From Escherichia phage SKA64: a stretch of 64,000 nt of DNA. How positions within the stretch are numbered: position 1 is the stretch's first letter; each line of letters opens with the position of its first letter. The notes under the pieces are model-generated. The model did no database searches. It was not told the DNA's origin and saw only the letters and a program-made list of their open reading frames with translations. This document shows positions 24 through 62,752 of the stretch, piece after piece. Position numbers and translations under genes: made by a program. The stretch lies in the sequence record OM362897.1. One strand, 5' to 3'.

Positions 24-524
24 ATGGGTGTAGCAACAATAGCTATCGGAAGAAGCGGTATAGATGAGTGCTATCAAACGGGACTCGTAAAACCTAACGA
101 ATTTCGTCAAATTTGTGTAAACCATATTGAAAAAGAGATTGCTCTTACTTTAGAGAATATGACCCTCCGAGATAAGCTGGAAATGTTTAAATGTTGGTGT
201 CTAGGAGAAGATTGGCTTTTAAACCATTTTCAAGAACTTTCTGATAGTAAAGAAAGCTTGTTTGATTGTATAATAGGAATAGCTGGCTCCGATCCTAGCC
301 TTCTGCACATAACAGAAGAAGAGGCGAAGTTACTGTTCTTAAGTAATTTGTTTAATAAGAAAGCACTGCTTGTTCGTGATTGCAGTGATCTTCTTAATAA
401 CCCGCTCGCAACGTCTGATCAAATTTTTGTTGACAAAGAGACACTACGTGCGATAGAATACATCTGCAAATATGTGAATGGCGGGAAAGCGGTTCTTAAA
501 ACATTAACAGAGGAGGAAGAATAG
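24..524 (+). CDS. hypothetical protein
   Basis: ORF track 21..524; ATG at 24 after AGGAGG at 14-19; first gene of packed + block. Confidence 0.6.
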   Translation: MGVATIAIGRSGIDECYQTGLVKPNEFRQICVNHIEKEIALTLENMTLRDKLEMFKCWCLGEDWLLNHFQELSDSKESLFDCIIGIAGSDPSLLHITEEEAKLLFLSNLFNKKALLVRDCSDLLNNPLATSDQIFVDKETLRAIEYICKYVNGGKAVLKTLTEEEE

Positions 525-1216
525 TGACGACAATTATTGCAACCAAAAATAAGATTTTGAGTGACGGTAAGGTAACTTTTGGTGGACGTGTAGATTCTAT
601 TAATTTCAAAAAGGTCCGAAAAATTGGAGATTACCTTGTAGGTGGTGCTGGTCGTCTGACCTCCGTGCTTTCTTTCTTTCAATGGTTTGAACAAAATCTA
701 CAGTGCGAAGCAGCACGTGATGCTGTCCCTGGTTTGATGATTCACTCTGATCCAGACAAAGAAGATGAAGAGTTTATTGCACTTGTTGTTCATCCAGACG
801 GACGTATTTTCCTGCACGAGGGTAACAACCCAACACGTGCATATCCGATTGATGAAGAATATTATGCAGTAGGGAGTGGGTCAGACTTTGCTTTAGCTGC
901 TCTTGATGCAGGGGCAACACCAGAACAGGCTATGGAAGTAGCTAAAAAGCGAGATGCTTTTTCTGGTGGTGAAACATTTATTGAAGAACAAGACGAGATT
1001 ATTGAATTAACAGACGATGATTTAGAAAACTTCTCCAAAGAAGAATTGATCAATCTTTTGAAATTCGGTAATCCCTACGGTGAAGAAGAACCTCGTAACG
1101 TGGCAGGTAACGAGGCGGATACTGAAGAAAAATCTGTTGCAGAAAACAACTTGACTTCTAAATCTGAAAATATTAATCTCGTAAATGTGGCGGATTTCGA
1201 AGGAACCGCTATTTAA
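524..1216 (+). CDS. HslV / proteasome beta-subunit-like Ntn-hydrolase peptidase with acidic C-terminal extension
   Basis: GTG start overlapping upstream stop; N-terminus M-TTIIAT (Thr1 nucleophile position), KKVRK, GGAG, AVGSGSDFALAALDAG resemble HslV TTIV / KKVRR / GFAGG / AIGSGG blocks; about 70 aa Asp/Glu-rich tail. Confidence 0.65.
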   Translation: MTTIIATKNKILSDGKVTFGGRVDSINFKKVRKIGDYLVGGAGRLTSVLSFFQWFEQNLQCEAARDAVPGLMIHSDPDKEDEEFIALVVHPDGRIFLHEGNNPTRAYPIDEEYYAVGSGSDFALAALDAGATPEQAMEVAKKRDAFSGGETFIEEQDEIIELTDDDLENFSKEELINLLKFGNPYGEEEPRNVAGNEADTEEKSVAENNLTSKSENINLVNVADFEGTAI

Positions 1217-3478: not shown

Positions 3479-3808
3479 ATGGAAATTACTACAGAACAAG
3501 CCCTTATCGATGAGGGTCGTAAAATCTTAGAAAAGTATTTAGGGGAGATTCATAAAACCCCTGGCTATTTGGGTTGGAGAATTGTTGAAGCTGTAGATTT
3601 CCTTCCTCGTAACAGTAAAAACGTCGAAATGCGATCTCTTTTCTTATTAGTAAAGGTGGATGGGGATACGCCTTTTAAAGATGCCGCAGAACATATTGAA
3701 AAAGTTGAAGAGAAAGCTTATGCAGAATTTGCCGATCTTGTTTTAGAACAAGAGATTGAAGGAAAGGTGAATATTTTTATTTTCTTAGATTTTGAGGAGG
3801 ATAAGTGA
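3479..3808 (+). CDS. hypothetical protein
   Basis: ORF track; GGAGGAAGGA RBS. Confidence 0.55.
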   Translation: MEITTEQALIDEGRKILEKYLGEIHKTPGYLGWRIVEAVDFLPRNSKNVEMRSLFLLVKVDGDTPFKDAAEHIEKVEEKAYAEFADLVLEQEIEGKVNIFIFLDFEEDK

Positions 3809-4548
3809 TCATACACAGAGAAATTACTGTTAAAAGCGATCAAGATCTTTTTATAATTGGAGATCTACACGGTTGTTATAATTTGTATGAAAAAGGAAAG
3901 GCAAAGTTAGGTATCCGAGATACAGATGTGGTTGTATCTCTAGGAGATCTTACTGACCGTGGAAAGCAAAACTTTCGTTGTGTTTTAGAATTTACTCGTA
4001 AACACAATCGCTACGCTATTCGTGGCAATCATGAAGACATGATGATTAAAGGTATGCTGGAAGGAGATCGTAGCTACTACGAGTGTTGGTATCAAAATGG
4101 AGGATATACGGTCTTTGAAGAATGTGGTGAAGAAGGAGCTACAGCCTTAGCAATGATGACAGAAGATTTACCTGTTGTTCTCATTGTTAACTACAGAGGC
4201 ATGAAACTTGCGTTTATTCATGGTGGGTATCCATCTTCTTTGGAATATCTCCCTGTAACAGATATTCCAGAATACATTTCGAAGATGACAAAAACACAGG
4301 AAAACCGTTTTGCTGAAGCACTTATGTGGGACAGAGATATGGTAGACTGTGCTAAAGAGGGAATGAAACTTCCTGTTGTGATGGGTGTGGATTATGTGTT
4401 TCATGGACACTCTTATGTAAAAACACCTATTATCAATGCGAATCGTGTTTATATGGATACTGGATCTGTGTTCAATAATAACTTAACATTTGCTTATTTC
4501 GATATGGACGGTGGTCTTCAATTTTATTCAACTCTTGAGGAGGATTAA
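3805..4548 (+). CDS. PPP-family Ser/Thr protein phosphatase / calcineurin-like metallophosphoesterase
   Basis: GDLHG, GDLTDRG and GNHE motifs in canonical order; 247 aa. Confidence 0.8.
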   Translation: MIIHREITVKSDQDLFIIGDLHGCYNLYEKGKAKLGIRDTDVVVSLGDLTDRGKQNFRCVLEFTRKHNRYAIRGNHEDMMIKGMLEGDRSYYECWYQNGGYTVFEECGEEGATALAMMTEDLPVVLIVNYRGMKLAFIHGGYPSSLEYLPVTDIPEYISKMTKTQENRFAEALMWDRDMVDCAKEGMKLPVVMGVDYVFHGHSYVKTPIINANRVYMDTGSVFNNNLTFAYFDMDGGLQFYSTLEED

Positions 4549-4856
4549 TGTATAAGATTACAATTATTCAAAGTGTAGGTAATATCCGTAAAGAAGTTAT
4601 CTTAGAAACAGAAGATGTTAATCTTGTTCGTGAGATTGTTCTTAAGGAAGATAACCTGCAAGCTGTAGAATCAGATGCACCGAATCTTATGGTGGATCAA
4701 GAATATTCTGAACTTCGTCGTATTTTTGAAGAGATTCAGAAGAAAGAAACACAACCGACCATAAAACCTTTTGGTCCTTATGATCCGAGCAATCCTAGCA
4801 GTCCTTGGATCATGAGAAATACGGAACCGTATACACCTTTTGAAATTACTTGTTGA
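4548..4856 (+). CDS. hypothetical protein
   Basis: ORF track; ATGA overlap with phosphatase stop. Confidence 0.5.
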   Translation: MYKITIIQSVGNIRKEVILETEDVNLVREIVLKEDNLQAVESDAPNLMVDQEYSELRRIFEEIQKKETQPTIKPFGPYDPSNPSSPWIMRNTEPYTPFEITC

Positions 4857-4863
4857 GGTGATT

Positions 4864-5445
4864 ATGGCAGAACTGTTCTATACGGGAGTTGGAAGTAGAG
4901 ACATATCCGAAGAAGAGTGGGCTTTGATGGTAGGCATAGGGAAATGGCTTTCAAACCTTGGGTTTAAATTAAGGTCTGGGAAGGCAGAGGGTAGTGATTC
5001 TGCTTTTGAAACAGGTGTCCAAGAGTCTGAAAATCCTACTAACAAGGAGATTTATGTTCCTTGGGAAAATTTCAAAGGTAATCAGATTCCAGGGGATGTT
5101 ATTGTTCTTGCAAAACCAGATACAATGAACTATGCTATCTCTGTGCAATGGATCAAAGATGTTCACCCAGCCTATGAAAAGCTTAAGCAGGGTGCTAGAA
5201 AATTGCACCAACGTAATGTGCATCAAGTGTTAGGTAGAGATTTGGAGAATCCTGCTCCATCATGTTTCTTGTTGGCTTGTGCTAATACTGATAAACATGG
5301 AGATGCAAAAGGTGGAACAGCTACGGCTTGGAAGATAGCTAAAGCCAATAATGTTCCTTGTTTAAATATTCGTGGGAAAACAAAACAAGAGATTTACGAT
5401 TTTCTACGACCTTTGGTAATGAGGGCAATAACAAGTGATTCCTAG
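4864..5445 (+). CDS. DprA/LOG-like (SLOG) Rossmann-fold protein
   Basis: ATG 4864 after GAGGTG; YTGVGSR...LSNLGFKLRSGKAEGSDSAFETG matches GSR...G..L.SG.A.G.D.A pattern of DprA/Smf/LOG fold. Confidence 0.45.
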   Translation: MAELFYTGVGSRDISEEEWALMVGIGKWLSNLGFKLRSGKAEGSDSAFETGVQESENPTNKEIYVPWENFKGNQIPGDVIVLAKPDTMNYAISVQWIKDVHPAYEKLKQGARKLHQRNVHQVLGRDLENPAPSCFLLACANTDKHGDAKGGTATAWKIAKANNVPCLNIRGKTKQEIYDFLRPLVMRAITSDS

Positions 5446-7268: not shown

Positions 7269-8210
7269 ATGGTGTTAATTGGTAGCCGTGCATTACAAAT
7301 TCATGCTATGGACATGGGAAAAGACTTGTATCGCCCTTGTGTAGATTTAGATTACCTGTGTACAGAACAAGAGTGGGAAGAATTATCAAAAATGTTCTCT
7401 CAAGACGAGTTTGTTGAACTTGTAGAACGTAAAGGGAGCAAAGGCCATGTCAAAATGATAGCTGGTGCACATTTGGAATACGATATTGCTTCTCAAGGAG
7501 ATAGCACAGAAGCTTTGATTAGTTATTGTGAAGATTCTGATGATGTTCGTCGAACTTACGCTGGACATGTTGTTGCTCCTTTAGATGTGCTCTACCTTCT
7601 TAAAATGAGTCATCGTTTTAAAAAGGATAGTCCTCACTTCTTTAAAACTATGAAAGATATTCATTTCATGCGGTCACTGGGCGCAAAGATCCCAGAAAAT
7701 CTTAAGAGTATTTATGAGTTGCGTGAGAAAGAAACATACACTTACTCTCATCCGAACTTAAACGTAAAAAGTAAAGAGTTCTTTAAAGGTGACGAGGTTC
7801 CGTATGTTTATGATCATGATTCTATCCATGAAGCAATCGCGTTAATGGATGCTCCAGCATATAAATCTTATATGAAAGATGGAAGTGAAGTTATGACCAG
7901 CAAAGAAAAGTTTTTTGCTCAACCAAAACATGTGCGGCTGTTAGGTGTTTATGAAGAAGCGTGTGTTTTGGCTTTGGAACGTTCACAAATTCCTTTCGGT
8001 GAAGAGATCGGAGGTCCAACCCCTAAGCAAAGTTTTATAATGGCTTTATCTAAAGTCTGCACATCCATCACTAGTGGTTGGTTTAGGGAATATGCTTGGG
8101 AAAACTTTTATGTTGTTATTAAGCTATATGAAAACATGGGCGAAAACGACTATGTTGAACGTTTTAAAGCTAATCAACATGTAGTAAAGCCTTTTGAAGG
8201 AGGTTATTAA
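7269..8210 (+). CDS. hypothetical protein (313 aa); weak minimal-nucleotidyltransferase-like N-terminus
   Basis: ORF track; AGAGGAG RBS; N-terminal LIGSRAL...VDLDYL loosely resembles GS...DxD NTase signature (spacing atypical). Confidence 0.55.
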   Translation: MVLIGSRALQIHAMDMGKDLYRPCVDLDYLCTEQEWEELSKMFSQDEFVELVERKGSKGHVKMIAGAHLEYDIASQGDSTEALISYCEDSDDVRRTYAGHVVAPLDVLYLLKMSHRFKKDSPHFFKTMKDIHFMRSLGAKIPENLKSIYELREKETYTYSHPNLNVKSKEFFKGDEVPYVYDHDSIHEAIALMDAPAYKSYMKDGSEVMTSKEKFFAQPKHVRLLGVYEEACVLALERSQIPFGEEIGGPTPKQSFIMALSKVCTSITSGWFREYAWENFYVVIKLYENMGENDYVERFKANQHVVKPFEGGY

Positions 8211-8211
8211 T

Positions 8212-8607
8212 ATGTGTGGATATCTTTCAGAAAGTTATTTCAAAGTGACGCATGAGGATTTAGAAAAAGCACGATTGAAACTGACAGCTATTATTGAATA
8301 CTCTAATACTGTTGAACACAGATTAAAGACTACTAAAGTATCTGTTCCTTGTTGGTTAGGTTTACGGCATAAAATAATGTCTCAACATGACCATGTTGTT
8401 CGAGAGATGCATGGTTGGTGTTGGTTTCACGATGTGGCTCTGCATTTTGGTTATATTACAGAAGAAGAGCATAGATTCTGTGAACTAACATATCGTATTC
8501 CAACCCTTCACGATTTAGATTTGTGGAAGAAAGCAAACGAGATTTTTCTTACAGAAAGTGATTGGCGTAAAGTTATGGCTTGTCTTGAATGGAGGGGTAA
8601 TGAGTAA
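8212..8607 (+). CDS. hypothetical protein
   Basis: ATG 8212 after GAAGGAGG preferred over TTG 8194. Confidence 0.55.
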   Translation: MCGYLSESYFKVTHEDLEKARLKLTAIIEYSNTVEHRLKTTKVSVPCWLGLRHKIMSQHDHVVREMHGWCWFHDVALHFGYITEEEHRFCELTYRIPTLHDLDLWKKANEIFLTESDWRKVMACLEWRGNE

Positions 8608-9283
8608 AACAGTTTTGTCTATGTTTGACGGATCTGGGATCATGGTGTTACGTTATGCCGAAGCAGGTCACAAGTGTTTTTGTGTAAACGCTGATGAAGG
8701 GGATCACGGTAAATACGAGGTTAGGATGGAGCACCCAAACATAACCTATGTGAATGCCTGGATAGATTCTACATTCAACCCTGAAGATCATGGGATACCT
8801 AAACCCGATATTATTTTTGGATTTCCACCTTGTACTATGTTAGCAGGTAGTGGTAGCAAACACGAACGTAGCACAGAGGAATTAGATGAAGCTTTAGCTA
8901 ATATTCGTGTAGTGGAAGCTTTGGGTAACAAATATAATGTTCCTTGGATGATTGAGAACCCAGTAGGTAAACTTTCAACCTTATGGCGTAAACCCGATTT
9001 TTACTTTGATCCTTATGAATATGGTGGGTATTTGTTTGAAGAGGAAGGAAGCTTTCATCCTAAAATGCCTACCCGTGATGGGTATACAAAGAAAACTTGT
9101 ATTTGGCACGGCAATGGTTTTGTTCAACCAGTGAAGAAACCAGTAGATCATATAGGCTGCTTCTGGGGTTGGAAAAGCTTAGGTGGAGCTAGTGCAAAAA
9201 CAAAACAACTTAGATCCCTAACCGCACGTGGTTTTGCTCGTGCCGTGTTTTTGTCTAACAATCTTCTAGATAAGGAGAAATAA
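8600..9283 (+). CDS. short C5-cytosine methyltransferase-like protein (catalytic core only)
   Basis: ATG 8600 after GGAGGGG; SMFDGSG (motif I-like), FGFPPCTMLAGSG (motif IV Pro-Cys-like), MIENPVGK (motif VI ENV-like); no obvious target-recognition domain at 228 aa. Confidence 0.45.
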   Translation: MSKTVLSMFDGSGIMVLRYAEAGHKCFCVNADEGDHGKYEVRMEHPNITYVNAWIDSTFNPEDHGIPKPDIIFGFPPCTMLAGSGSKHERSTEELDEALANIRVVEALGNKYNVPWMIENPVGKLSTLWRKPDFYFDPYEYGGYLFEEEGSFHPKMPTRDGYTKKTCIWHGNGFVQPVKKPVDHIGCFWGWKSLGGASAKTKQLRSLTARGFARAVFLSNNLLDKEK

Positions 9284-9933
9284 TGTCAAATTCAAAACCA
9301 GTAGTTGCTTATCAAGTAGATCGTAATGATGGTGAAGGAAGTGTTGTTATTTTCAGTACACACGGTCTTGAGGCTCGTCGAAAAGGTGCATATCGTTTAG
9401 AATGTGAGTTTGAAGACTGCACAAGCCACCGTGTGAAACAATTCGATCAATATGCTGATAAAGGCTTCGTCCCTATCAAAGCCTTACTGGAAGATGGTTG
9501 GTGGGTATATTCTGCTTTTGATGGTGTTAGACTCGACGAACCTGTAGGAGGTCTTGAGGCAGATTTTGACGAATGCGAAGATGGCTTGTATATTGAAGAG
9601 GATCTTGTATTTTCCCTTGACGAGAAAAGCGTGTGGAAGAACTGGGAAGAAATGGAACGTCACGCGCATTTTATCAACAATGCTTTGATTCGTAAAGCTT
9701 GGTTTATGGAGGCGGTGAAGGTAGCGTATCCGCAGTTCACCTTTACAGAGGTTTGGGGCGGTCCACACCACATCACCCATACAGCATTTTTCGACTTCCC
9801 TGGTTCACGTTACAAAGGTAATATAATGTGGGACTGGGATGAGAATAAAGTACCATCTGTTAAAGACTTTCGTTGTTATGTTTGCCAAGGCGATCAAGAA
9901 GCCCTTGACAAATACCTACAAAGTCTGGTATAG
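9283..9933 (+). CDS. hypothetical protein
   Basis: ORF track; ATGTCA overlap with upstream stop. Confidence 0.55.
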   Translation: MSNSKPVVAYQVDRNDGEGSVVIFSTHGLEARRKGAYRLECEFEDCTSHRVKQFDQYADKGFVPIKALLEDGWWVYSAFDGVRLDEPVGGLEADFDECEDGLYIEEDLVFSLDEKSVWKNWEEMERHAHFINNALIRKAWFMEAVKVAYPQFTFTEVWGGPHHITHTAFFDFPGSRYKGNIMWDWDENKVPSVKDFRCYVCQGDQEALDKYLQSLV

Positions 9934-9950
9934 TGCCAGCATCTGAACAA

Positions 9951-9980
9951 AGCCTCCTGTTTCAGGGGGCTTTTCTTTTA
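9951..9980 (+). terminator. rho-independent terminator
   Basis: agcctcctg-tttc-agggggct hairpin then TTTTCTTTT. Confidence 0.6.
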
Positions 9981-9991
9981 TGGGAGGAAAT

Positions 9992-10483
9992 ATGTTTCAA
10001 GTAGAAATTCATGTGCACAACAGTTGTTCAAATTGCGAGACTTGTGGTTACAATAGTTCAACCATGATCACTATTAGCGGAGACTTAGGAGATGCCAAGT
10101 TTGGCGAAGTCGCAAGCTGCTTCAGCGGAGAGGATGCAGATTGGCATGATATTGCACACTGGTTGGTGAGCAAACTAAAAGAAAAAGAGAAACCATTTCC
10201 TACTCTGCTTGATCGTTCTCTTGTGGAAGATGCAGGTAAAGCATATGCAGACTATGCGTATGCAGACGGGAAATATTTGGAAGATGATAAGGCTAACCAT
10301 TTGCTTTATGTTTACTATGAAGCTGAATCTGCCTACGATAATTATTACAGCATGTCCAACATTCTACGTTTGTTTGCGGAGTTTGATATTTACTTTGAAG
10401 TGAGTTATTCTCAAGACGAAGTGTACGATTTGGATGACGAAGATTATGATGATTATGAGGAGGAAGAATGCCAAGACGATTAA
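9992..10483 (+). CDS. hypothetical Cys-containing protein with acidic tail
   Basis: ATG 9992 after GGGAGG; track start 9980 lies in terminator T-tract. Confidence 0.55.
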   Translation: MFQVEIHVHNSCSNCETCGYNSSTMITISGDLGDAKFGEVASCFSGEDADWHDIAHWLVSKLKEKEKPFPTLLDRSLVEDAGKAYADYAYADGKYLEDDKANHLLYVYYEAESAYDNYYSMSNILRLFAEFDIYFEVSYSQDEVYDLDDEDYDDYEEEECQDD

Positions 10484-11268
10484 TAGTGATCAGCGGCGCG
10501 GGTCTAAGCGCCGATAGCGGTGTACGTACTTTCCGCACTGACACAGAAAGTGGCAAAGCTTTGTGGGATGAATACGACCTTTCTGAAGTGTGCGACATTT
10601 TCAACTTCCGTGCTGGATACCAACAAGAACAGTGTGTTCCTGGGGCTGTTGGCGGATTAGATGCAGAGGGATACAACCTCTACCGTAAAACTCATGACTT
10701 CTACAATAAACGTCGCGTAGAGATGGATAGTGTAACTCCTAACGCTGCGCATTACCAGATCGCGGAATGGTTCCAAGAGTACGGCTGTGATCGTGTTATC
10801 AACATCACGACAAACGTAGATGATCTTCTGGAACAAGCAGGTGTTGTTCATGAAGATGTTCTACATGTTCACGGCTTCCTGCCTGAAGTGATCGTAGACA
10901 ATAGAATCATCAAAGATGTTGGCTATGCTGCTATCGATGTGGATGATTACAAGTATGTGAAGCCCAATGTAGTGTTCTTTGGGGAGACTGCCCCATTGTA
11001 TAACGATATGTACCACATCTTAGACGGCTTGACGGCTCAAGATATGGTGATTGTAGTGGGTTGCTCTAATCAAGTTATCAATTTTAACTGGGAGCTTTTT
11101 CCTGCTCTTAACATCGGAACAAAAATGGTTGTAGTTAACCCTGGAGTTAATTACGAAGAAACACTTCTCTATGAAGATCGTGGAGTTTTTGTTTACCGAG
11201 AAAAAGCTGCAACAGCCTTCAGCAATGAAGGTTTCATTAAAATGGTCGAAGACCACTTAAACAAATAA
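10468..11268 (+). CDS. Sir2-family (sirtuin-like) NAD-binding protein
   Basis: GAGLSADSGVRTFR, TTNVDDL, LHVHG, VVFFGE sirtuin motifs; no Cx2C...Cx2C zinc module seen. Confidence 0.8.
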   Translation: MPRRLIVISGAGLSADSGVRTFRTDTESGKALWDEYDLSEVCDIFNFRAGYQQEQCVPGAVGGLDAEGYNLYRKTHDFYNKRRVEMDSVTPNAAHYQIAEWFQEYGCDRVINITTNVDDLLEQAGVVHEDVLHVHGFLPEVIVDNRIIKDVGYAAIDVDDYKYVKPNVVFFGETAPLYNDMYHILDGLTAQDMVIVVGCSNQVINFNWELFPALNIGTKMVVVNPGVNYEETLLYEDRGVFVYREKAATAFSNEGFIKMVEDHLNK

Positions 11269-11277
11269 ACCACTCAA

Positions 11278-11302
11278 GGGGCTTCGGCCCCTTTCTTATT
11301 AG
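11278..11302 (+). terminator. rho-independent terminator
   Basis: aaggggcttcggcccctt hairpin plus T-rich tail. Confidence 0.65.
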
Positions 11303-11311
11303 GAGAATAAA

Positions 11312-11584
11312 ATGACTGAAGAAATCCGTGATTACTACCTTGCACATTACGTTTACTACTTTGCCAATGCTACACAAAAAGGGGAAGGTAATCTTTACTT
11401 GGCAACAGGGCATGGAACAGGCGTTAGGAAATCAAATATTGATAACGCCTTGGCTCAAGTGGCTGCTGGGCTAGAAGATAAACTTCAAACACCTGTAGTT
11501 GTAGTGATGCAAAACATAAGTTACCTAGCAAGCTGTACTGAAACCGAATTTAACGCGTCTGAAACGCAATCTAACGAAGAATAA
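11312..11584 (+). CDS. hypothetical protein
   Basis: ORF track; AGGAG RBS. Confidence 0.5.
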   Translation: MTEEIRDYYLAHYVYYFANATQKGEGNLYLATGHGTGVRKSNIDNALAQVAAGLEDKLQTPVVVVMQNISYLASCTETEFNASETQSNEE

Positions 11585-18097: not shown

Positions 18098-18775
18098 CTA
18101 TTTAATGTTCAGTCTGGCACACAAACGAGAAACAGTTTTAGCATCCCATTTACCACCACGTGCTGTTGCTATTTTCTTACTATTGAATTTTTCAGCAATA
18201 GTTTTGTAAGGTGTATTTAAATCTCTAAGGATCTCCAAGCGTTCACGGAATGTCTCTGCAAAAGCGTCTGCTTTAACAGAGTTGTATTCCATTTTTCCTT
18301 TTCTACGTGCAGCGGCAGTTTTAGGATTAGCACTGCCTAATAAAACACCTTTGCTTTTTGCTACAGCAAGACCCTTTTTAATACGATCAGCAATACCTCT
18401 AACTTCTTGTTCAGCCAGAACAGACAGAAGCTGTATAACCATTTTATCTGCGTCTGGCATAATGGCTATCTTAACATCGATCATTTCTAGAAGAGTTGCT
18501 ACGGAGGCGTTATTACGACCCAAGCGGTCAACTTTAGCTACCAATAAAGTTGCTCCGGTAGCTTTACACATTTCAACCGCTTTAACCAGTTCCTTACGTT
18601 GCTTCCAATCGCCCTTACCCGAATAGTATTCAGAAAATTGACCAATAACTTCCGCATCAGGCACAGAGTCTAAGAAGTAACGGATATCATTCTCTTGGCT
18701 CTCCATACCATATTGTGCCTCACCTTTTTTCTGTTTAGAAAGACGACTGTAAACAACAAACTTTTTCATAACCAC
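18098..18775 (-). CDS. small serine recombinase (resolvase/invertase family)
   Basis: YSRLS catalytic-Ser context, LLVAKVDRLGRN, E-x-E...I-x-x-RIKKGL blocks; 225 aa, no large-integrase extension. Confidence 0.7.
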   Translation of the reverse strand: MVMKKFVVYSRLSKQKKGEAQYGMESQENDIRYFLDSVPDAEVIGQFSEYYSGKGDWKQRKELVKAVEMCKATGATLLVAKVDRLGRNNASVATLLEMIDVKIAIMPDADKMVIQLLSVLAEQEVRGIADRIKKGLAVAKSKGVLLGSANPKTAAARRKGKMEYNSVKADAFAETFRERLEILRDLNTPYKTIAEKFNSKKIATARGGKWDAKTVSRLCARLNIK

Positions 18776-42340: not shown

Positions 42341-42883
42341 TCACAAATATCGTCTTTGCGGTATTTTGTCTGGGAAAAGTATTTCGATCAGTTTGTTATG
42401 ATATTTACCTAAAAGATTTTGCCCTTTCCAGTTGACCGGATTTAGCACCCCTGGTTCATACATTCCCATTCCAATACCGTAAACCTTATCGTAAGGACTT
42501 GCTTCAACAAACGTTTTGTATTGGTAAAGGTGTAAGTCTGCATACAAATCTGGATTCTGTACATATTTCAAGCATAAACCTCGCATAACAATACGCTCAC
42601 GGTTCTCTTCCCATACATTGTTATCAAAATCCGACACTGCCCTACCCATACGTTTGTAATAAGCCTGGATCTTCTCATCTTTCCGTATCAAACTATGAGT
42701 CAGAATAGCCTGTGCAGTGTTGTGATCATTAAAAAGCAAAGCTTTACGCCACATCATGTATTGTTCGACACAATTAAATGTCTGATTGTAACCTGGTTCG
42801 GTTTCTGTAAAGGGTGCAATATACCAATTACTAAAAACATCTTTATGTGAAAAGAAGAATACATAATCATCAGTTATTCGCAT
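42341..42883 (-). CDS. NADAR (YbiA-like) domain protein
   Basis: FFFSHKDVFSNWYIAPF, VEQYMMWRKAL, LCLKYVQNPDLYADLHLY, FVEASPYDKVYGIGMG match YbiA/NADAR blocks. Confidence 0.8.
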   Translation of the reverse strand: MRITDDYVFFFSHKDVFSNWYIAPFTETEPGYNQTFNCVEQYMMWRKALLFNDHNTAQAILTHSLIRKDEKIQAYYKRMGRAVSDFDNNVWEENRERIVMRGLCLKYVQNPDLYADLHLYQYKTFVEASPYDKVYGIGMGMYEPGVLNPVNWKGQNLLGKYHNKLIEILFPDKIPQRRYL

Positions 42884-43094
42884 TTTTCATACTCTCCAAA
42901 ATTTCACGTTGCCCTTGCTGATAGGCTTTCATCAGAACTACTTTAAGGTTTGTCTCCAAGAGGTCTTCATTGTAATTATACCGCTCCACAACATATGTCA
43001 ATTCATCATAAAGATCAAGAACGGGGTAGAATACAGGGTTATCTGCTAAACGTGCCATAGTTTCTCCTTTGTTAATCCATCCACCAGTAGCCAT
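42870..43094 (-). CDS. hypothetical protein
   Basis: ORF track. Confidence 0.5.
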   Translation of the reverse strand: MATGGWINKGETMARLADNPVFYPVLDLYDELTYVVERYNYNEDLLETNLKVVLMKAYQQGQREILESMKNANN

Positions 43095-43437
43095 AAACTG
43101 CGTCTGCGTCGATGAGTTTGTGTTTGTTGTTCCGCATGTAGTCTAAGATAAGTAGACGTTTATTGTATCTGGAGAGATTATGACCCTCTTTTCCGCCATA
43201 GTCAAAATATTTTGCAAGATCTTTGCACTCAAACAAAATTAGTTCGGGAGTTTCTTCACACTGGTCTGTCTGGTACACTTGACGAATGATCATGTATACA
43301 TCATCGTCTTCCGCTAAATGCTCTACTGGTCCACATCCAGCAGGAACAAATTCATAGTCCCATCTGATCAGATGTTTCTCTACTGCTTCAAAGAAGTCCA
43401 TTCTTTCGTTGCGCATAATTTGAACGTCAACTAACAT
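43072..43437 (-). CDS. hypothetical protein
   Basis: ORF track. Confidence 0.5.
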   Translation of the reverse strand: MLVDVQIMRNERMDFFEAVEKHLIRWDYEFVPAGCGPVEHLAEDDDVYMIIRQVYQTDQCEETPELILFECKDLAKYFDYGGKEGHNLSRYNKRLLILDYMRNNKHKLIDADAVYGYWWMD

Positions 43438-44411
43438 GTTTCCTCCTGTAATATTCCACCATAAAGTTTATAAATGTTTTGTATTGATGCCATGCAAGAT
43501 AACTCTACTGTTTCTGTGTAGCCATCTGGCATAGCATATTTGCTCACTGCTTCCGTATCAAGAATACGCTTACAACGACTCTCTGCATCTTTGCACTGCT
43601 TAACAGTAGGGAAGTGCCACACTTGGTGTTGTTTCATAGTTAACACATTATGGCTATTTTGTTCTTTAATACGCCTATCGCTATCTTTAGTAATGCCAAA
43701 TTTCAAGGCACAGAGAACACCTTGTTCATCATAGACATAGTTAATGTAACATTGCTGTTGATTTTTGTTAGCACAATGCGGACAACCTTGACCCAGGTTT
43801 AATAAGCTATTAGCACTCCCTATATGCTCCCCGTGATCCTTACACCCATATTTAAACTTCCCTATTGATGAGGGTTTACTGATCCACTCTATCCAGATAT
43901 ATCCTTTACTTTCTAAACCTTTTCTCACTTTGTAGGTGATTTGTTCGTCTGTATAATGATAATTTTTAGAACAACGGCAAGGGAGACTCCCTCTTTTAAG
44001 GTTATTCCCTTGTGCATAAAACCTGCCATCACAGACGTGAGCTTGCACATATTCATCATGGGAACATTTAGGACATTCAACCATCCAGATAATACTCTTC
44101 CCTTTACGTTTGCCTGTATTGGTGAAGATAGTTCCAGGCTTAAACTTCCCTGTACTTATGAAATTTTGTATGTGCTGATTGTCTGGAATAGCTTTTGCTT
44201 TACTTATTTTATCATACACACAGGTAGGGCAACCAGTACCCCGTTTAAAGTTATAAAAACAGCATGTATTCCATTCATGACCATGACTACAACGTAGGAT
44301 CATCTTCGTATGCGCACCTTTAAACGGCTCTACGATACCTATAATGGTAATCCCCTTAGTTTCCGCTATTGGTTTACATTCTTCCATGTACTGTTCTAAC
44401 GTCTTTGCCAT
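43431..44411 (-). CDS. multi-zinc-ribbon protein
   Basis: three C-x-H/C...C-x2-C modules (CSHGHEW...CPTC; CPKCSHDEY; CKDHGEH...CPHCANKN). Confidence 0.55.
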   Translation of the reverse strand: MAKTLEQYMEECKPIAETKGITIIGIVEPFKGAHTKMILRCSHGHEWNTCCFYNFKRGTGCPTCVYDKISKAKAIPDNQHIQNFISTGKFKPGTIFTNTGKRKGKSIIWMVECPKCSHDEYVQAHVCDGRFYAQGNNLKRGSLPCRCSKNYHYTDEQITYKVRKGLESKGYIWIEWISKPSSIGKFKYGCKDHGEHIGSANSLLNLGQGCPHCANKNQQQCYINYVYDEQGVLCALKFGITKDSDRRIKEQNSHNVLTMKQHQVWHFPTVKQCKDAESRCKRILDTEAVSKYAMPDGYTETVELSCMASIQNIYKLYGGILQEETC

Positions 44412-44439
44412 CTCTAACGATCCTCTCTCTCTATTAAAC

Positions 44440-44475
44440 TAAAATCAATATAACAAAACCCGCCGAAGCGGGTTT
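44440..44475 (-). terminator. rho-independent terminator (minus strand)
   Basis: aaacccgccgaagcgggttt hairpin with U-rich tail on minus strand. Confidence 0.55.
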
Positions 44476-44491
44476 AATAAATCTCAACTTA

Positions 44492-45631
44492 TTAGAACAC
44501 GCTACCTAATGTGGTGGAACGTTGTGTTACAGGCTCCAGCACCACTCGCAGAGTGTTTCCTGGTGTAGTGCTCATCACCAGAATCTTACCACCTTCAATC
44601 AGATCACAAGTTAGACCATCAGCAGTTGCACATAGATCAATATGTGGATCACCATCTTCATCCAGGATAACATAACTGTTGGTTTCCATTGCTTCCACTT
44701 CATCATCTTTCAAACTTTGTAGATAGATGTTCAGGGAACAAGCACCCGACAAAAACTTAGTAGGGGTGAAGTCGTGCCAGTTATTGATCCAATTCACCTT
44801 CAAGGTTTTGCCATTAGCTACGATAGAAGCCACATTCCATTTAGCATCGTTCCCTAAAGAAATACCCATCATTTCAAGACATTCTTTAAAAGTCATTTTT
44901 GGATAGAAATTCAATTCTTCTACAATGCCTTGAATAACATCGAAAGACAACTCTGTGCTAACATCCCATAAACGTTGGAAGTTATCTACGTGCTTTTTAT
45001 TTACCAAGTTCTTATCCAAGTAATCTAACATAGTTTCACTAGACAGTTTATCGTAATTGAAACTGTAGTAGATACGACTAGGACGGTTTACAAAATATTC
45101 CGAGATATAGCCACTATTTTTAGTGAGGATGTAAAGTTTATTTCCACTTCCTGTTCCATCCAACAAGGTCAACAGTGCTTCCTGATCTTCTTTCTTAGCG
45201 TACACTTTATCAAACTCGTCAAATAAAACAACAGCACGATCTGTAATTTTACTCATAAATTCTAAGAATCCAGCGTCTGTGTAAGGCTGTGTCACCAAAA
45301 TGGTTGGAATACCTAAACCTTCTGTGGACATTAGGGACATGCTAATCAGTTTAGCTAACATCGTCTTACCACTGCCCTTTGTCCCTGTCAGTAACACCCC
45401 AGTATTTTTACCTTCTTTACTACGACGAGCAAATGTTTTAATAACATGTGCGGCGCGGTCTTTAGTTTCCCCATAAAGAGTGTTCGGAAGAGAGAAACTT
45501 TCGCCACGCACTAAAGAGTAGTTACCGTGCGGATCGCAGTTGACAACCCAAACTCCAGCAGGAAGTTTATTAGCTTCAACACCATATTCCTTATTTACAA
45601 CAGCCACATCTCCAAAAATAGTGTATTTCAT
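44492..45631 (-). CDS. AAA+ family ATPase
   Basis: Walker A GTKGSGKT, Walker B VVLFDEFD. Confidence 0.7.
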   Translation of the reverse strand: MKYTIFGDVAVVNKEYGVEANKLPAGVWVVNCDPHGNYSLVRGESFSLPNTLYGETKDRAAHVIKTFARRSKEGKNTGVLLTGTKGSGKTMLAKLISMSLMSTEGLGIPTILVTQPYTDAGFLEFMSKITDRAVVLFDEFDKVYAKKEDQEALLTLLDGTGSGNKLYILTKNSGYISEYFVNRPSRIYYSFNYDKLSSETMLDYLDKNLVNKKHVDNFQRLWDVSTELSFDVIQGIVEELNFYPKMTFKECLEMMGISLGNDAKWNVASIVANGKTLKVNWINNWHDFTPTKFLSGACSLNIYLQSLKDDEVEAMETNSYVILDEDGDPHIDLCATADGLTCDLIEGGKILVMSTTPGNTLRVVLEPVTQRSTTLGSVF

Positions 45632-60181: not shown

Positions 60182-60787
60182 ATGCAACATAGTGTAGTAG
60201 TCAACATGCCGAATAGTGGGGATAAATCTTTTGGTGTCCCTGCTAAAAAAGTGTGGAAAGCCCATTTTCATCTTACTTTATCTAACGTTAGTTCTGAAGA
60301 GTTGATGAAAGCAGCTAAGATTATTGGTGCCAAATGCACAACAATTGATTTACATCGGGATACAAAGTCTCAACGTGATCGTATGTTAACAAAGTATCAA
60401 AGCGATCTCGACACTACTTTAATGTTGCAGTGTGTAGAAAAACTTGAGAATGCAGGTTTCAATGTTGTTCGTTACAAACTGGAACGAATGTTTAAACATG
60501 TTGCCTGTGTTCTTTTCATGGATCTAAGTAAAGAAAATTACGGAGAAGTTCACATTAAGACTTCAGCAAGTGATCCCGAAGTAGAAACAAACTTCTTCCG
60601 TATTTCTTCTAATGCTGAAGAAATTGATTACCGATTTTATAATGCTCGCTTATATTCCGCAGAAGATAAGTTGCGTTTCAATGAAGCGTATGATATGCTC
60701 TTGAACAGTGGGATACAGATAAAAGGCTACCACATAGAACAAGTGGTAGTGGACAGTAATCTTAACTTAGACGCATGGTGGGCTTAA
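60182..60787 (+). CDS. hypothetical protein
   Basis: ORF track; GAGGAGATAAG RBS. Confidence 0.55.
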   Translation: MQHSVVVNMPNSGDKSFGVPAKKVWKAHFHLTLSNVSSEELMKAAKIIGAKCTTIDLHRDTKSQRDRMLTKYQSDLDTTLMLQCVEKLENAGFNVVRYKLERMFKHVACVLFMDLSKENYGEVHIKTSASDPEVETNFFRISSNAEEIDYRFYNARLYSAEDKLRFNEAYDMLLNSGIQIKGYHIEQVVVDSNLNLDAWWA

Positions 60788-60788
60788 T

Positions 60789-61445
60789 ATGACTATTAAA
60801 CATATCTCTTTTGATGTATGGAACACACTGATCACAGCAAACTCCAATTACGCAGACATGCGAGCCTGGACTATCGCAAAATATGGAGATATTACGGAAG
60901 TTGAAGCAAGAGCAGCTTATAAAAAGATCAAAAAGGAACTGGATAATGCAGCACTTCAAGGCAAAGCCGAGTGTGCAGCATACGCCTGGGAAAGACTTGG
61001 TTCTGAACTTGGGATAACGCCTTGGAAGTCTGCAAAGCTTCGTTTCGAGTGTGAACAGTGGTTCCTTAAGTTTCCACCACACGTAGCCGTAGATCTGCCG
61101 ATGTACTTGCTGTATCTTTCTGGGCGTTATGATTTGAGTATTAAGAGCAATACCAACTTCATATCAGGGGATATTCTGCGTCGTGCTTGTAAGTTTGATA
61201 GTTGGAATTGTTTTGAGTTCACCCATTTCTCGGATGAAGCTTTACTTTGTAAACCAGATCCGCGATTCTTTGCTCGCACGCTCACGTATTCTCCGATCCC
61301 TCTGTTAGGGCACGAAGTGTTGCACGTAGGCGATAGTGAAGAATATGATGGAAAATGTGTTGACTTAGGGTTTAACTTCTGTCATATTAAGAACCCTAAC
61401 GACTTACTAGAGAAACTTAAAAGAGGAGAAATTGTAAATGCGTAA
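60789..61445 (+). CDS. HAD-superfamily hydrolase-like protein
   Basis: ISFDVWNTLI (motif I with Asp nucleophile position), SIKSNTN, HVGDSEEYDGK (motif IV-like). Confidence 0.6.
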   Translation: MTIKHISFDVWNTLITANSNYADMRAWTIAKYGDITEVEARAAYKKIKKELDNAALQGKAECAAYAWERLGSELGITPWKSAKLRFECEQWFLKFPPHVAVDLPMYLLYLSGRYDLSIKSNTNFISGDILRRACKFDSWNCFEFTHFSDEALLCKPDPRFFARTLTYSPIPLLGHEVLHVGDSEEYDGKCVDLGFNFCHIKNPNDLLEKLKRGEIVNA

Positions 61446-62265
61446 TCAAACTCAAATTTTTGCAAATAAATTTGATGACCTGGAAACTGCTACTTTTGAT
61501 ATCCAAGATTATTCAAAATTGAAATTTGGTAGTAACCAAGCTGCGCGTCGTATGGGTAAAGAATTGGCACTTCAGTTTTTTGCTCAAGTGGCAATGAAAC
61601 ATATTGGGGAACAATTTGTTATCATTCCTTCTCCTTACAACCATGTGCATAATGCTGCAACAATGATGACAGATCATTTTATTAATTACTTCAATATGTT
61701 GCAAGCACAATATGATCAAGGTCGTTCAGCAGAACTGGACATTATTCATCGTAAAGTTAGCTATATCAACGATTATGGTTTCTTGGATAAAGCTAGTCGT
61801 AAGAAACTTATTGATGGGGATACATTCTACTGTAACAAAGAATTCTGGGGTGATAAGAAGCTTGTGTTTATTGATGATGTAAATATCACTGGAACTCATG
61901 AAGACAAACTGATTGAGATCCTTGATGAAAATCAAGTTAAAAATGATGTTTACTTCTTGTATTTTGCAAAATACGAAGGTAATCAAGCAGATACCGAAGC
62001 TAAACTGAATTTTAATTATATTAATACACCAGAAGCGTTTGTTAAAATGATTAATGAAGAACGTGATGCACAGTGTCTTGTTCGTCCTATTAAGTATCTT
62101 ATGGGCCAAAATCACGAAGACTTCAAAATCATTCTTAGCCAATTACCACACTACTATGTAGAGCAACTTTTCTTCGGATGTTTGGGAGAAGGTTACAACC
62201 GAATTTCAAAGTATGCCGAAAACTTTGAATTCTTGGATCGTTACACAAAACAACACATTCTGTAA
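61438..62265 (+). CDS. type I phosphoribosyltransferase-fold protein
   Basis: KLVFIDDVNITGTHE matches PRPP-binding loop; overlaps HAD gene stop. Confidence 0.6.
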   Translation: MRNQTQIFANKFDDLETATFDIQDYSKLKFGSNQAARRMGKELALQFFAQVAMKHIGEQFVIIPSPYNHVHNAATMMTDHFINYFNMLQAQYDQGRSAELDIIHRKVSYINDYGFLDKASRKKLIDGDTFYCNKEFWGDKKLVFIDDVNITGTHEDKLIEILDENQVKNDVYFLYFAKYEGNQADTEAKLNFNYINTPEAFVKMINEERDAQCLVRPIKYLMGQNHEDFKIILSQLPHYYVEQLFFGCLGEGYNRISKYAENFEFLDRYTKQHIL

Positions 62266-62278
62266 TAAGGAGCTAAAA

Positions 62279-62752
62279 ATGCTTAAAATGAAAACAGGTA
62301 ATCTTATTGATGCCGCTAAAGCAGGTGAAGTAACTGTTATTGCTCATTGTTGCAATTGTATGTGTAATATGGGGGCAGGTATTGCCCCACAAATCAAACG
62401 AGCATTTCCTTACGCATATGCAGCAGACTTAGACACAATGGCTGGTGATCAAAGTAAACTAGGTTGTTTTAGTTTAGGGGTGCCAGACGAACAATCAGAT
62501 CCTTTGGTATATAATCTATACGGGCAGTATCGTTATGGATACAATGCTAAAGGTCGTCAGTTGGACTATGATGCACTTTACGATGCACTAATAGCTATGG
62601 CTAACGATTTGCTTCTCCGTGACCAAAAATGTAAGATCGGCTTACCTATGATTGGCGCTGGATATGCTGGAGGTAATTGGGCTATCATCCAAGTGATGAT
62701 TGAAGAAACTTTAGTAAAAACAGGTCACGATGTGACTATTTATAAACTTTAA
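62279..62752 (+). CDS. macro domain protein
   Basis: ATG after TAAGGAG; VTVIAHCCNCMCNMGAGIAPQI and IGLPMIGAGYAGGNW macro-like blocks. Confidence 0.7.
   Translation: MLKMKTGNLIDAAKAGEVTVIAHCCNCMCNMGAGIAPQIKRAFPYAYAADLDTMAGDQSKLGCFSLGVPDEQSDPLVYNLYGQYRYGYNAKGRQLDYDALYDALIAMANDLLLRDQKCKIGLPMIGAGYAGGNWAIIQVMIEETLVKTGHDVTIYKL

Follow-up and report, generated by a model that had tools for sequence, protein, structure and literature searches.

What kind of reaction can be expected from a sirtuin that is encoded by a lytic phage and has lost its zinc module? This question is raised by a gene located at positions 10468–11268 on the plus strand of a 64,000-nucleotide stretch of Escherichia phage SKA64 (sequence record OM362897.1), which was analysed at its full length and is called the window below. 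The original prediction, made from the sequence alone, recognized here a Sir2-like protein that could modify host proteins or manipulate the pool of nicotinamide adenine dinucleotide (NAD+). As judged by its sequence and predicted structure, this protein is a divergent offshoot of class III (CobB/SIRT5-type) deacylases, and we tentatively consider it as an NAD+-dependent protein lysine deacylase (probability of about 0.45), which, according to its conserved residues, probably accepts acidic acyl groups. Among the enzymes of large virulent phages of enterobacteria and Vibrio that have no assigned role, Sir2 is one of the most widespread; T5, a model phage, carries it, as do many phages considered for therapy, and the candidate roles at stake are re-setting of host protein acylation, RNA repair and NAD+ manipulation. 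As a sequence feature the gene adds nothing new, since the gene itself and its family are already known, as are the absence of zinc and a prediction of function. Thus, a paper of 2016 noted that the homologues of KVP40 and phiSt2 lack the zinc ligand (PMC5107563), while Iyer, Burroughs, Anantharaman and Aravind (2022, section 3.7.3; PMC9503650) described a “distinct clade” of viral sirtuins, naming rV5, Mydo, T5-like SP15 and jumbo phages, and predicted that it removes 2′-phosphates from RNA in a KptA-like manner.

Sirtuin signature of the phage protein

The open reading frame (ORF) starts with an ATG codon preceded by GAGGAGG and encodes 266 amino acids. All sirtuin motifs quoted for it earlier (GAGLSADSGVRTFR, TTNVDDL, HVHG and VVFFGE) were found in the product, cysteines occur only at positions 42, 56, 107 and 199, and the CxxC pattern is absent throughout the protein. 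The Pfam family SIR2 (PF02146) matched it with E = 6.5e-20 and 72.3 bits at a cutoff of 24, and PHROG 2162, “Sir2 (NAD-dependent deacetylase)”, with E = 1.1e-101, residues 2–266 being aligned with profile positions 10–271 of 277. These two scores place the sirtuin identity of the gene far above chance and, taken together with the motifs and the number of cysteines, confirm the observation.

Conservation was estimated in a family alignment of 43 sequences having 52–100% identity, and it is this set that the word “invariant” refers to. The alignment, in line with both database matches, bears out the expectation that the NAD-binding and catalytic core is intact. Invariant are G10, A11, G12, S14, S17, F22 and R23 of the NAD-binding loop, F78, Y79, R82 and R83 of the segment FYNKRR, T114, T115, N116, V117 and D118 of TTNVDDL, and H135 with G136 of HVHG. 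The same is true for F170, F171 and E173 of the FGE loop and for K165, P166 and N167 immediately upstream. The canonical GTSxxVxP takes in the phage protein the form GCSNQVIN, where proline is replaced by Asn205, and continues into the helix NFNWELFP conserved in the clade. Within this segment G198, S200, V203, I204, F206, F211 and P212 never vary, N205, W208 and E209 are conserved in at least 90% of members, and profile alignments with CobB stop at V203/I204. On a larger scale conservation was followed by searching 1.84 billion representative proteins with a profile, 144 alignable top hits (50%-identity representatives) being scored. Catalytic and NAD-binding residues are retained across them as well, and nearly all possess the Tyr-x-x-Arg dyad. 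One more property is the strongly acidic character of the protein, which has an isoelectric point (pI) of 4.63 and a net charge of −19, the median pI of the family being about 5.

Relation to deacylases and to defence sirtuins

The closest solved protein by sequence is CobB of E. coli (1s5p), found with E = 2e-15 by single sequence and 1.1e-24 by family profile, followed by Sir2Af1/2 and SIRT5. The AlphaFold2 model obtained for the phage protein has a mean predicted local distance difference test (pLDDT) of 90.9 and a predicted template modelling score (pTM) of 0.88, and both the model and the Foldseek search show the Rossmann large domain with the small domain attached to it. Foldseek placed at the top of its PDB matches the same CobB (E = 4.5e-18, TM-scores 0.72/0.85, probability 1.00), then Sir2Af1 and SIRT5, and the top matches include complexes with acyl-peptides. 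The phage protein has in common with CobB and SIRT5 its NAD-binding loop, Tyr-x-x-Arg dyad, paired Asn/Asp and catalytic His, as well as the motifs FGE and GxS. It differs from them by a low overall identity (~27–32%), by the more acidic character of its family, by the deleted zinc ribbon, by the replacement of Gln with Thr in TQNID, and by the change of VYP to VIN with the adjoining NFNWELFP helix.

The original prediction also mentioned that Sir2 domains act as NADases in bacterial immunity. This link did not withstand comparison: the PADLOC scan gave nothing meaningful, its sole match being a stretch of 39 residues similar to PDC-S65 with E = 3e-4, and the fold is nearest to the deacylases named above, so that a defence-type SIR2 NADase was rejected. 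Defence NADases such as ThsA, DSR1/2, SIR2-HerA and SIR2-APAZ likewise have a Rossmann fold without the zinc ribbon and participate in phage-host conflict. However, they are fused to or paired with a sensor (SLOG, HerA, pAgo or the C-terminal domain of DSR), whereas the phage-encoded Sir2 is a stand-alone domain of 266 residues with no such partner.

Loss of the zinc module

The Cys4 (CxxC...CxxC) zinc ribbon is lacking in the phage protein, as the original prediction suggested from the absence of Cx2C pairs. This is supported both by the scattered position of the four cysteines and by alignments: none of the 43 relatives has a cysteine in the region 136–165, the only cysteine invariant in the family is C42, and the stretch carrying the CHCC knuckle of E. 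coli CobB is deleted. Structure prediction, which had been proposed as a check of the zinc site, revealed there a cysteine-free beta-hairpin and a loop, the strands 136–143 and 147–150 being modelled with pLDDT of 94–95 at the place usually occupied by the ribbon.

This deletion is accompanied by the replacement in the TQNID motif. Among the 144 representatives 79 combine Gln in this motif with at least three cysteines in the zinc region, while 42 have there another residue (mostly Thr) and no more than two cysteines. The mixed classes comprise only 6 and 17 proteins, and the total number of representatives with two cysteines or less is 48. Fisher’s test gave for this co-variation p = 2.8e-16, a value that is uncorrected for phylogeny. 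Based on this co-variation one can assume that the zinc loss is old, clade-defining and coupled to Q115T, rather than being an oddity of a single gene; the zinc-less state, as judged from these sequences, is clade-wide and ancient. Both its coupling to the Gln-to-Thr change and the intact class III dyad offer clear experimental handles. Sir2La, considered as a precedent of an active deacylase devoid of zinc, was unconfirmed in the literature searched and is not used here.

Distribution and genomic neighbourhoods in other phages

Over 6 kb around Sir2 the sequence agrees with Escherichia phage phAPEC8 and related phages (Phapecoctavirus, Stephanstirmvirinae) at 97–98% identity. The gene resides in a virulent phage, as was supposed. 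Records of phAPEC8 type annotate it as Sir2-like, and its product has counterparts of 100% identity among deposited phage proteins. According to tblastn, homologues are present in 978 of 50,697 phage records (~2%), with identity of 52–61% in T5-like, 58% in Mydo-like and 49% in rV5-like phages, and of 35–37% and 32–41% in KVP40-like Vibrio phages and jumbo phages, respectively. A metagenome-scale protein database contains 3,027 relatives at E ≤ 1e-5. Members of PHROG 2162 (“T5.102 Sir2-like protein” of T5, the proteins of rV5 and Mydo, gp197 of phAPEC8 and Sir2/CobB of KVP40) have the same length, the same motifs and the same absence of zinc cysteines, and nothing essential separates them from the Phapecoctavirus subgroup. 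Distinctive for this subgroup are an insertion of ~20 residues (positions 50–70) in the helical small domain, its own partner ORF upstream, and the lack of RNA-repair neighbours.

Elsewhere such neighbours are easily seen. In the rV5-like locus polynucleotide kinase (PNK) with phosphoesterase, RNA ligase and a small ORF precede Sir2, and DNA ligase is found farther on. In Mydo the order is phosphoesterase, RNA ligase, Sir2, DNA ligase, with NAMPT nearby and a NADAR homologue ~6 kb from Sir2. The T5-like locus consists of Sir2, a small ORF and an “RNA repair protein”, and the locus of jumbo phage PHA46 includes NMNAT, NAMPT, 2H, Sir2, a small ORF and Nudix. In a marine contig Sir2 adjoins a NadR-like NMNAT, with HAD_SAK_2 nearby. 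For a systematic estimate the neighbourhoods of 24 Sir2 clusters (70% identity) from IMG/VR were compared. Within three ORFs on each side Pfam registered cREC_REC, DNA ligase and NrdD in 4 cases each, PhoH and kinases in 3, NAMPT, HAD_SAK_2, 2H and Nudix in 2, and PIN in 1. By blastp, 5 of the 24 clusters have genes of NAD+ salvage (NAMPT, NMNAT) no farther than 5 kb from Sir2.

Partners in RNA repair were then looked for in the lineage of SKA64, using tblastn against the window and the rest of phAPEC8 (~150 kb in total) with RNA ligase, PNK, phosphoesterase, the probable cREC ORF, the HAD “RNA repair protein”, 2H and Nudix of the relatives as queries. No homologues of RNA ligase, PNK, 2H, HAD_SAK or Nudix were detected in this genome. 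The matches obtained were gp134 of phAPEC8 (corresponding to the small rV5/Mydo neighbour and likely a cREC), a probable MazG-type ORF and, weakly, a phosphoesterase, all clustered beside the DNA ligase gene ~30 kb from Sir2. None of the partners seen in the relatives lies near Sir2 in this lineage, and RNA-repair partners were rejected for this phage.

NADAR and macro-domain genes of the window

The original prediction combined Sir2 with the NADAR and macro genes into a common NAD/ADP-ribose theme. Both genes do exist (Table 1), though the macro match is borderline; the theme itself is weak, as they lie 31 kb (NADAR) and 51 kb (macro) from Sir2 on other transcription units, and the region 7269..11584 around Sir2 encodes no macro domain. 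SirTM systems also have a sirtuin and a macro-domain protein in one genome, but there the two genes are adjacent, whereas here they are unlinked. For these reasons, distance and separate transcription units, a SirTM-like operon was rejected.

The surroundings of these two genes deserve a separate description. At 60182..62752 (plus strand), beside the genes of anaerobic ribonucleotide reductase, the macro domain is found together with a 201-residue ORF, a weak HAD hydrolase and a ComF-like phosphoribosyltransferase (PRTase_3, 7.7e-42), a set of PRTase, macro and HAD that might process ADP-ribose or NAD-derived molecules. The NADAR gene lies downstream of a 325-residue protein (43431..44411, minus strand) with CapR, treble-clef zinc-finger and T5orf172/MUG113 (GIY-YIG-like) domains, and of a 378-residue AAA/STAND-like ATPase (44492..45631, minus strand). 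This pair of ATPase and nuclease near NADAR (42341..45631) looks like a conflict system in a virulent phage.

Possible function of the phage sirtuin

Protein deacylation is favoured here because catalytic, tunnel and Tyr/Arg residues are invariant, the closest structures are deacylases and the protein carries an acidic charge. To the observed fold, motifs, genomic contexts and clade-wide zinc loss, the chemistry and substrates that we infer can be added as follows. NAD+ would be bound in the Rossmann cleft, and the acyl-lysine of a target protein, from either host or phage, would enter the conserved hydrophobic tunnel formed by F22, H135, F171 and V203. The acyl oxygen would then attack C1′ of the nicotinamide ribose with release of nicotinamide, after which His135 would activate the ribose 2′-OH and the acyl group would leave as O-acyl-ADP-ribose. 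The dyad Tyr79-x-x-Arg82 suggests that succinyl and malonyl groups may be accepted besides acetyl, and such an acidic enzyme would fit basic, lysine-rich targets, its biological role presumably being to re-set the state of protein acylation during infection. The low pI, compared with 9.37 of KptA, fits a protein substrate better than RNA, and the gene is retained in a genome having no detectable RNA ligase, PNK, 2H, HAD_SAK or Nudix partner.

There are, nevertheless, several points that weigh against deacylation. Scores with the NCBIfam equivalog and subfamily models of CobB are far under their cutoffs (98 vs 243 and 80.4 vs 320 bits), the host already has CobB, and the literature searched yielded neither biochemical nor genetic experiments on a phage Sir2. 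Since the zinc module is lost, Gln of TQNID is Thr, and Pro of VxP is Asn205 followed by the clade-specific NFNWELFP helix, the substrate groove is possibly remodelled. Genomic context adds to this: blastp finds RNA-end-processing homologues within 5 kb of Sir2 in 8 of the 24 clusters, and in a metagenomic phage-like contig (L095, 5001..6100) the stop codon of zinc-less homologue P0131 overlaps the start of PTH2 peptidyl-tRNA hydrolase, contexts which point to RNA or tRNA biology over general deacylation of proteins. Another homologue (P0128, contig L011) adjoins SmpB, and these two single cases point towards tRNA and translation rescue. The protein may, then, act as proposed in PMC9503650, which names exactly this clade and whose neighbourhoods (rV5-like, Mydo, T5-like and PHA46) were reproduced here, i.e. 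by removing 2′-phosphates from RNA ends or junctions in an NAD+-dependent way, as Tpt1/KptA does. In such a route a phosphate oxygen would attack C1″ of NAD+ and His135 would activate 2″-OH, giving ADP-ribose 1″,2″-cyclic phosphate and RNA with 2′-OH, and the phage could thereby finish repair of tRNAs or mRNAs cut by metal-independent host nucleases. The two-step chemistry of sirtuins appears formally analogous to that of Tpt1, although the proposed analogy is functional only, as the folds are unrelated and the basic KptA contrasts with the acidic Sir2. We nevertheless regard this function as rather unlikely for the phage protein: the idea is a purely genomic prediction, the association is missing in two thirds of the clusters, the partners are undetected in the phAPEC8-type genome and absent near Sir2 in clusters 13, 3, 5 and 7, the host encodes its own KptA, and the acyl-lysine tunnel and class III dyad are invariant though neither is needed for ribose-2′-phosphate. 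The RNA-repair neighbourhoods, the PTH2 overlap and the SmpB adjacency speak for a wider version, equally doubtful, in which the whole Thr-type zinc-less clade would be the first nucleic-acid-directed sirtuin instead of a protein-acting one, either taking the place of the non-homologous Tpt1/KptA in removing 2′-phosphates from RNA or deacylating N-acylated aminoacyl-tRNAs. The latter would be produced by host toxins, and the enzyme would rescue tRNA and translation from RNA-targeting defences.

Some sirtuins (SirTM, SIRT4/6) ADP-ribosylate, and residues required for NAD cleavage are intact in the phage protein. An ADP-ribosyltransferase or NAD+ glycohydrolase used for host takeover or counter-defence, which corresponds to the broader idea of the original prediction, would modify a host protein by ADP-ribosylation or else consume NAD+ or signals derived from NAD. 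Such an enzyme, with its products trimmed by the NADAR and macro proteins of the same phage, would also agree with the NADAR homologue near Sir2 in Mydo and with the NAD+ salvage genes of the five clusters, which are consistent with a consumption of NAD+ that needs replenishment. But the nearest relatives are efficient deacylases, the catalytic His of deacylation type is kept, the protein is unlike the models of defence NADases, and NADAR and macro have no operon link with Sir2, occupying other strands or units. Moreover, depletion of NAD+ harms phages (NARP papers), so that a free NADase would be self-defeating, and on the whole we hold this function for distinctly improbable. Still far less credible is a degenerate, non-catalytic fold, which would have lost a module that sirtuins normally need for stability and been kept for binding or as a scaffold; the substitutions in TQNID and VxP might be read in this way, but no catalytic or NAD-binding residue varies among hundreds of divergent homologues, the fold is predicted with confidence, and the absence of the zinc module is an ancient trait of the whole clade.

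Local surroundings of Sir2

In a long block of plus-strand genes, Sir2 occupies the last position but one; the other members include nrdAB, phoH, rml genes, an hslV-like gene, a calcineurin-like phosphatase and a putative C5-methyltransferase. Directly upstream lies an ORF (Table 1) that is translationally coupled to Sir2 by the overlap of 16 nt. Its product has the invariant motif CETCG, C47 and a very acidic C-terminal tail, but no Pfam match, and its homologues stand directly upstream of Sir2 solely in Phapecoctavirus and close relatives. Two terminator-like hairpins flank this pair of genes. A promoter-like site at 9905–9934 was discarded, since the number of such sites in the region is at the level of chance (15 found, 12.9 expected). 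A conserved partner ORF common to Sir2 in general was rejected too, as the small ORFs flanking it in 24 lineages are not detectably homologous.

Table 1. Position of Sir2, its motifs and other features in the window
Feature	Position	Strand	Basis or remark
Sir2-like (sirtuin) gene without zinc ligands, PHROG 2162	10468..11268	+	ORF list, Pfam, PHROG, AlphaFold2
NAD-binding loop GAGLSADSGVRTFR, aa 10–23	10495..10536	+	aligns with CobB GAGISAESGIRTFR
FYNKRR, aa 78–83, class III Tyr-x-x-Arg dyad Y79/R82	10699..10716	+	aligns with CobB FYNARR
TTNVDDL, aa 114–120, catalytic Asn116/Asp118; Thr115 at the canonical Gln position	10807..10827	+	
HVHG, aa 133–136, catalytic His135	10864..10875	+	aligns with CobB HMHG
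Cys-free beta-hairpin and loop, aa 137–165, in place of the Cys4 zinc ribbon	10876..10962	+	AlphaFold2, alignments
VVFFGE, aa 168–173, FGE substrate/NAD loop	10969..10986	+	
GCSNQVINFNWELFP, aa 198–212, counterpart of GTSxxVxP, then clade-specific conserved helix	11059..11103	+	
167-aa ORF overlapping the Sir2 start by 16 nt	9980..10483	+	ORF list
Terminator-like hairpin upstream of the two-gene unit	9949..9973	+	11-bp stem, 6 GC pairs, T-run
Terminator-like hairpin AAGGGGCTTCGGCCCCTT followed by TCTTATT, 8 nt past the Sir2 stop	11276..11293	+	
NADAR-domain gene, context only	42341..42883	−	PF08719, 1.8e-35, 123 bits; 31 kb from Sir2
Macro-domain gene, borderline	62213..62752	+	PF01661, 8.9e-05, 22.9 bits vs cutoff 22; 51 kb from Sir2

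Other genes of the region were inspected as well. A 313-residue DUF7277+DUF7275 protein (7269..8210, plus strand; 254 bits) is located 2–3 kb upstream of Sir2 also in KVP40-like phages. Its N-terminus, read by eye, resembles a minimal nucleotidyltransferase (GS...DxD), and a sequence search found no relative of it in the PDB. As a partner of Sir2 it was rejected: as many as 734 phage records contain it, T4-like RB69 and CC31 among them, and it is therefore not Sir2-specific. Sequence searches in the PDB gave no match for two other neighbours, 9283..9933 and 4840..5445. The product of 8558..9283 (plus strand, 241 residues) has no Pfam match but contains FDGSG and GFPPC motifs typical of C5-cytosine methyltransferases; in relatives it is labelled “Dcm” or “DNA methyltransferase”, and it lies near Sir2 in four related lineages. 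A calcineurin-like phosphoesterase (3805..4548, plus strand; 2.7e-13) remains close to Sir2 (within ~5 kb) in related lineages despite changes in orientation. The same plus-strand block includes an HslV/proteasome-like peptidase (524..1216, plus strand) with a weak Pfam score of 1.1e-05. Finally, a serine recombinase with a Resolvase N-terminal domain (18098..18775, minus strand; 5.3e-18) is found within the early-gene block of this virulent myovirus.

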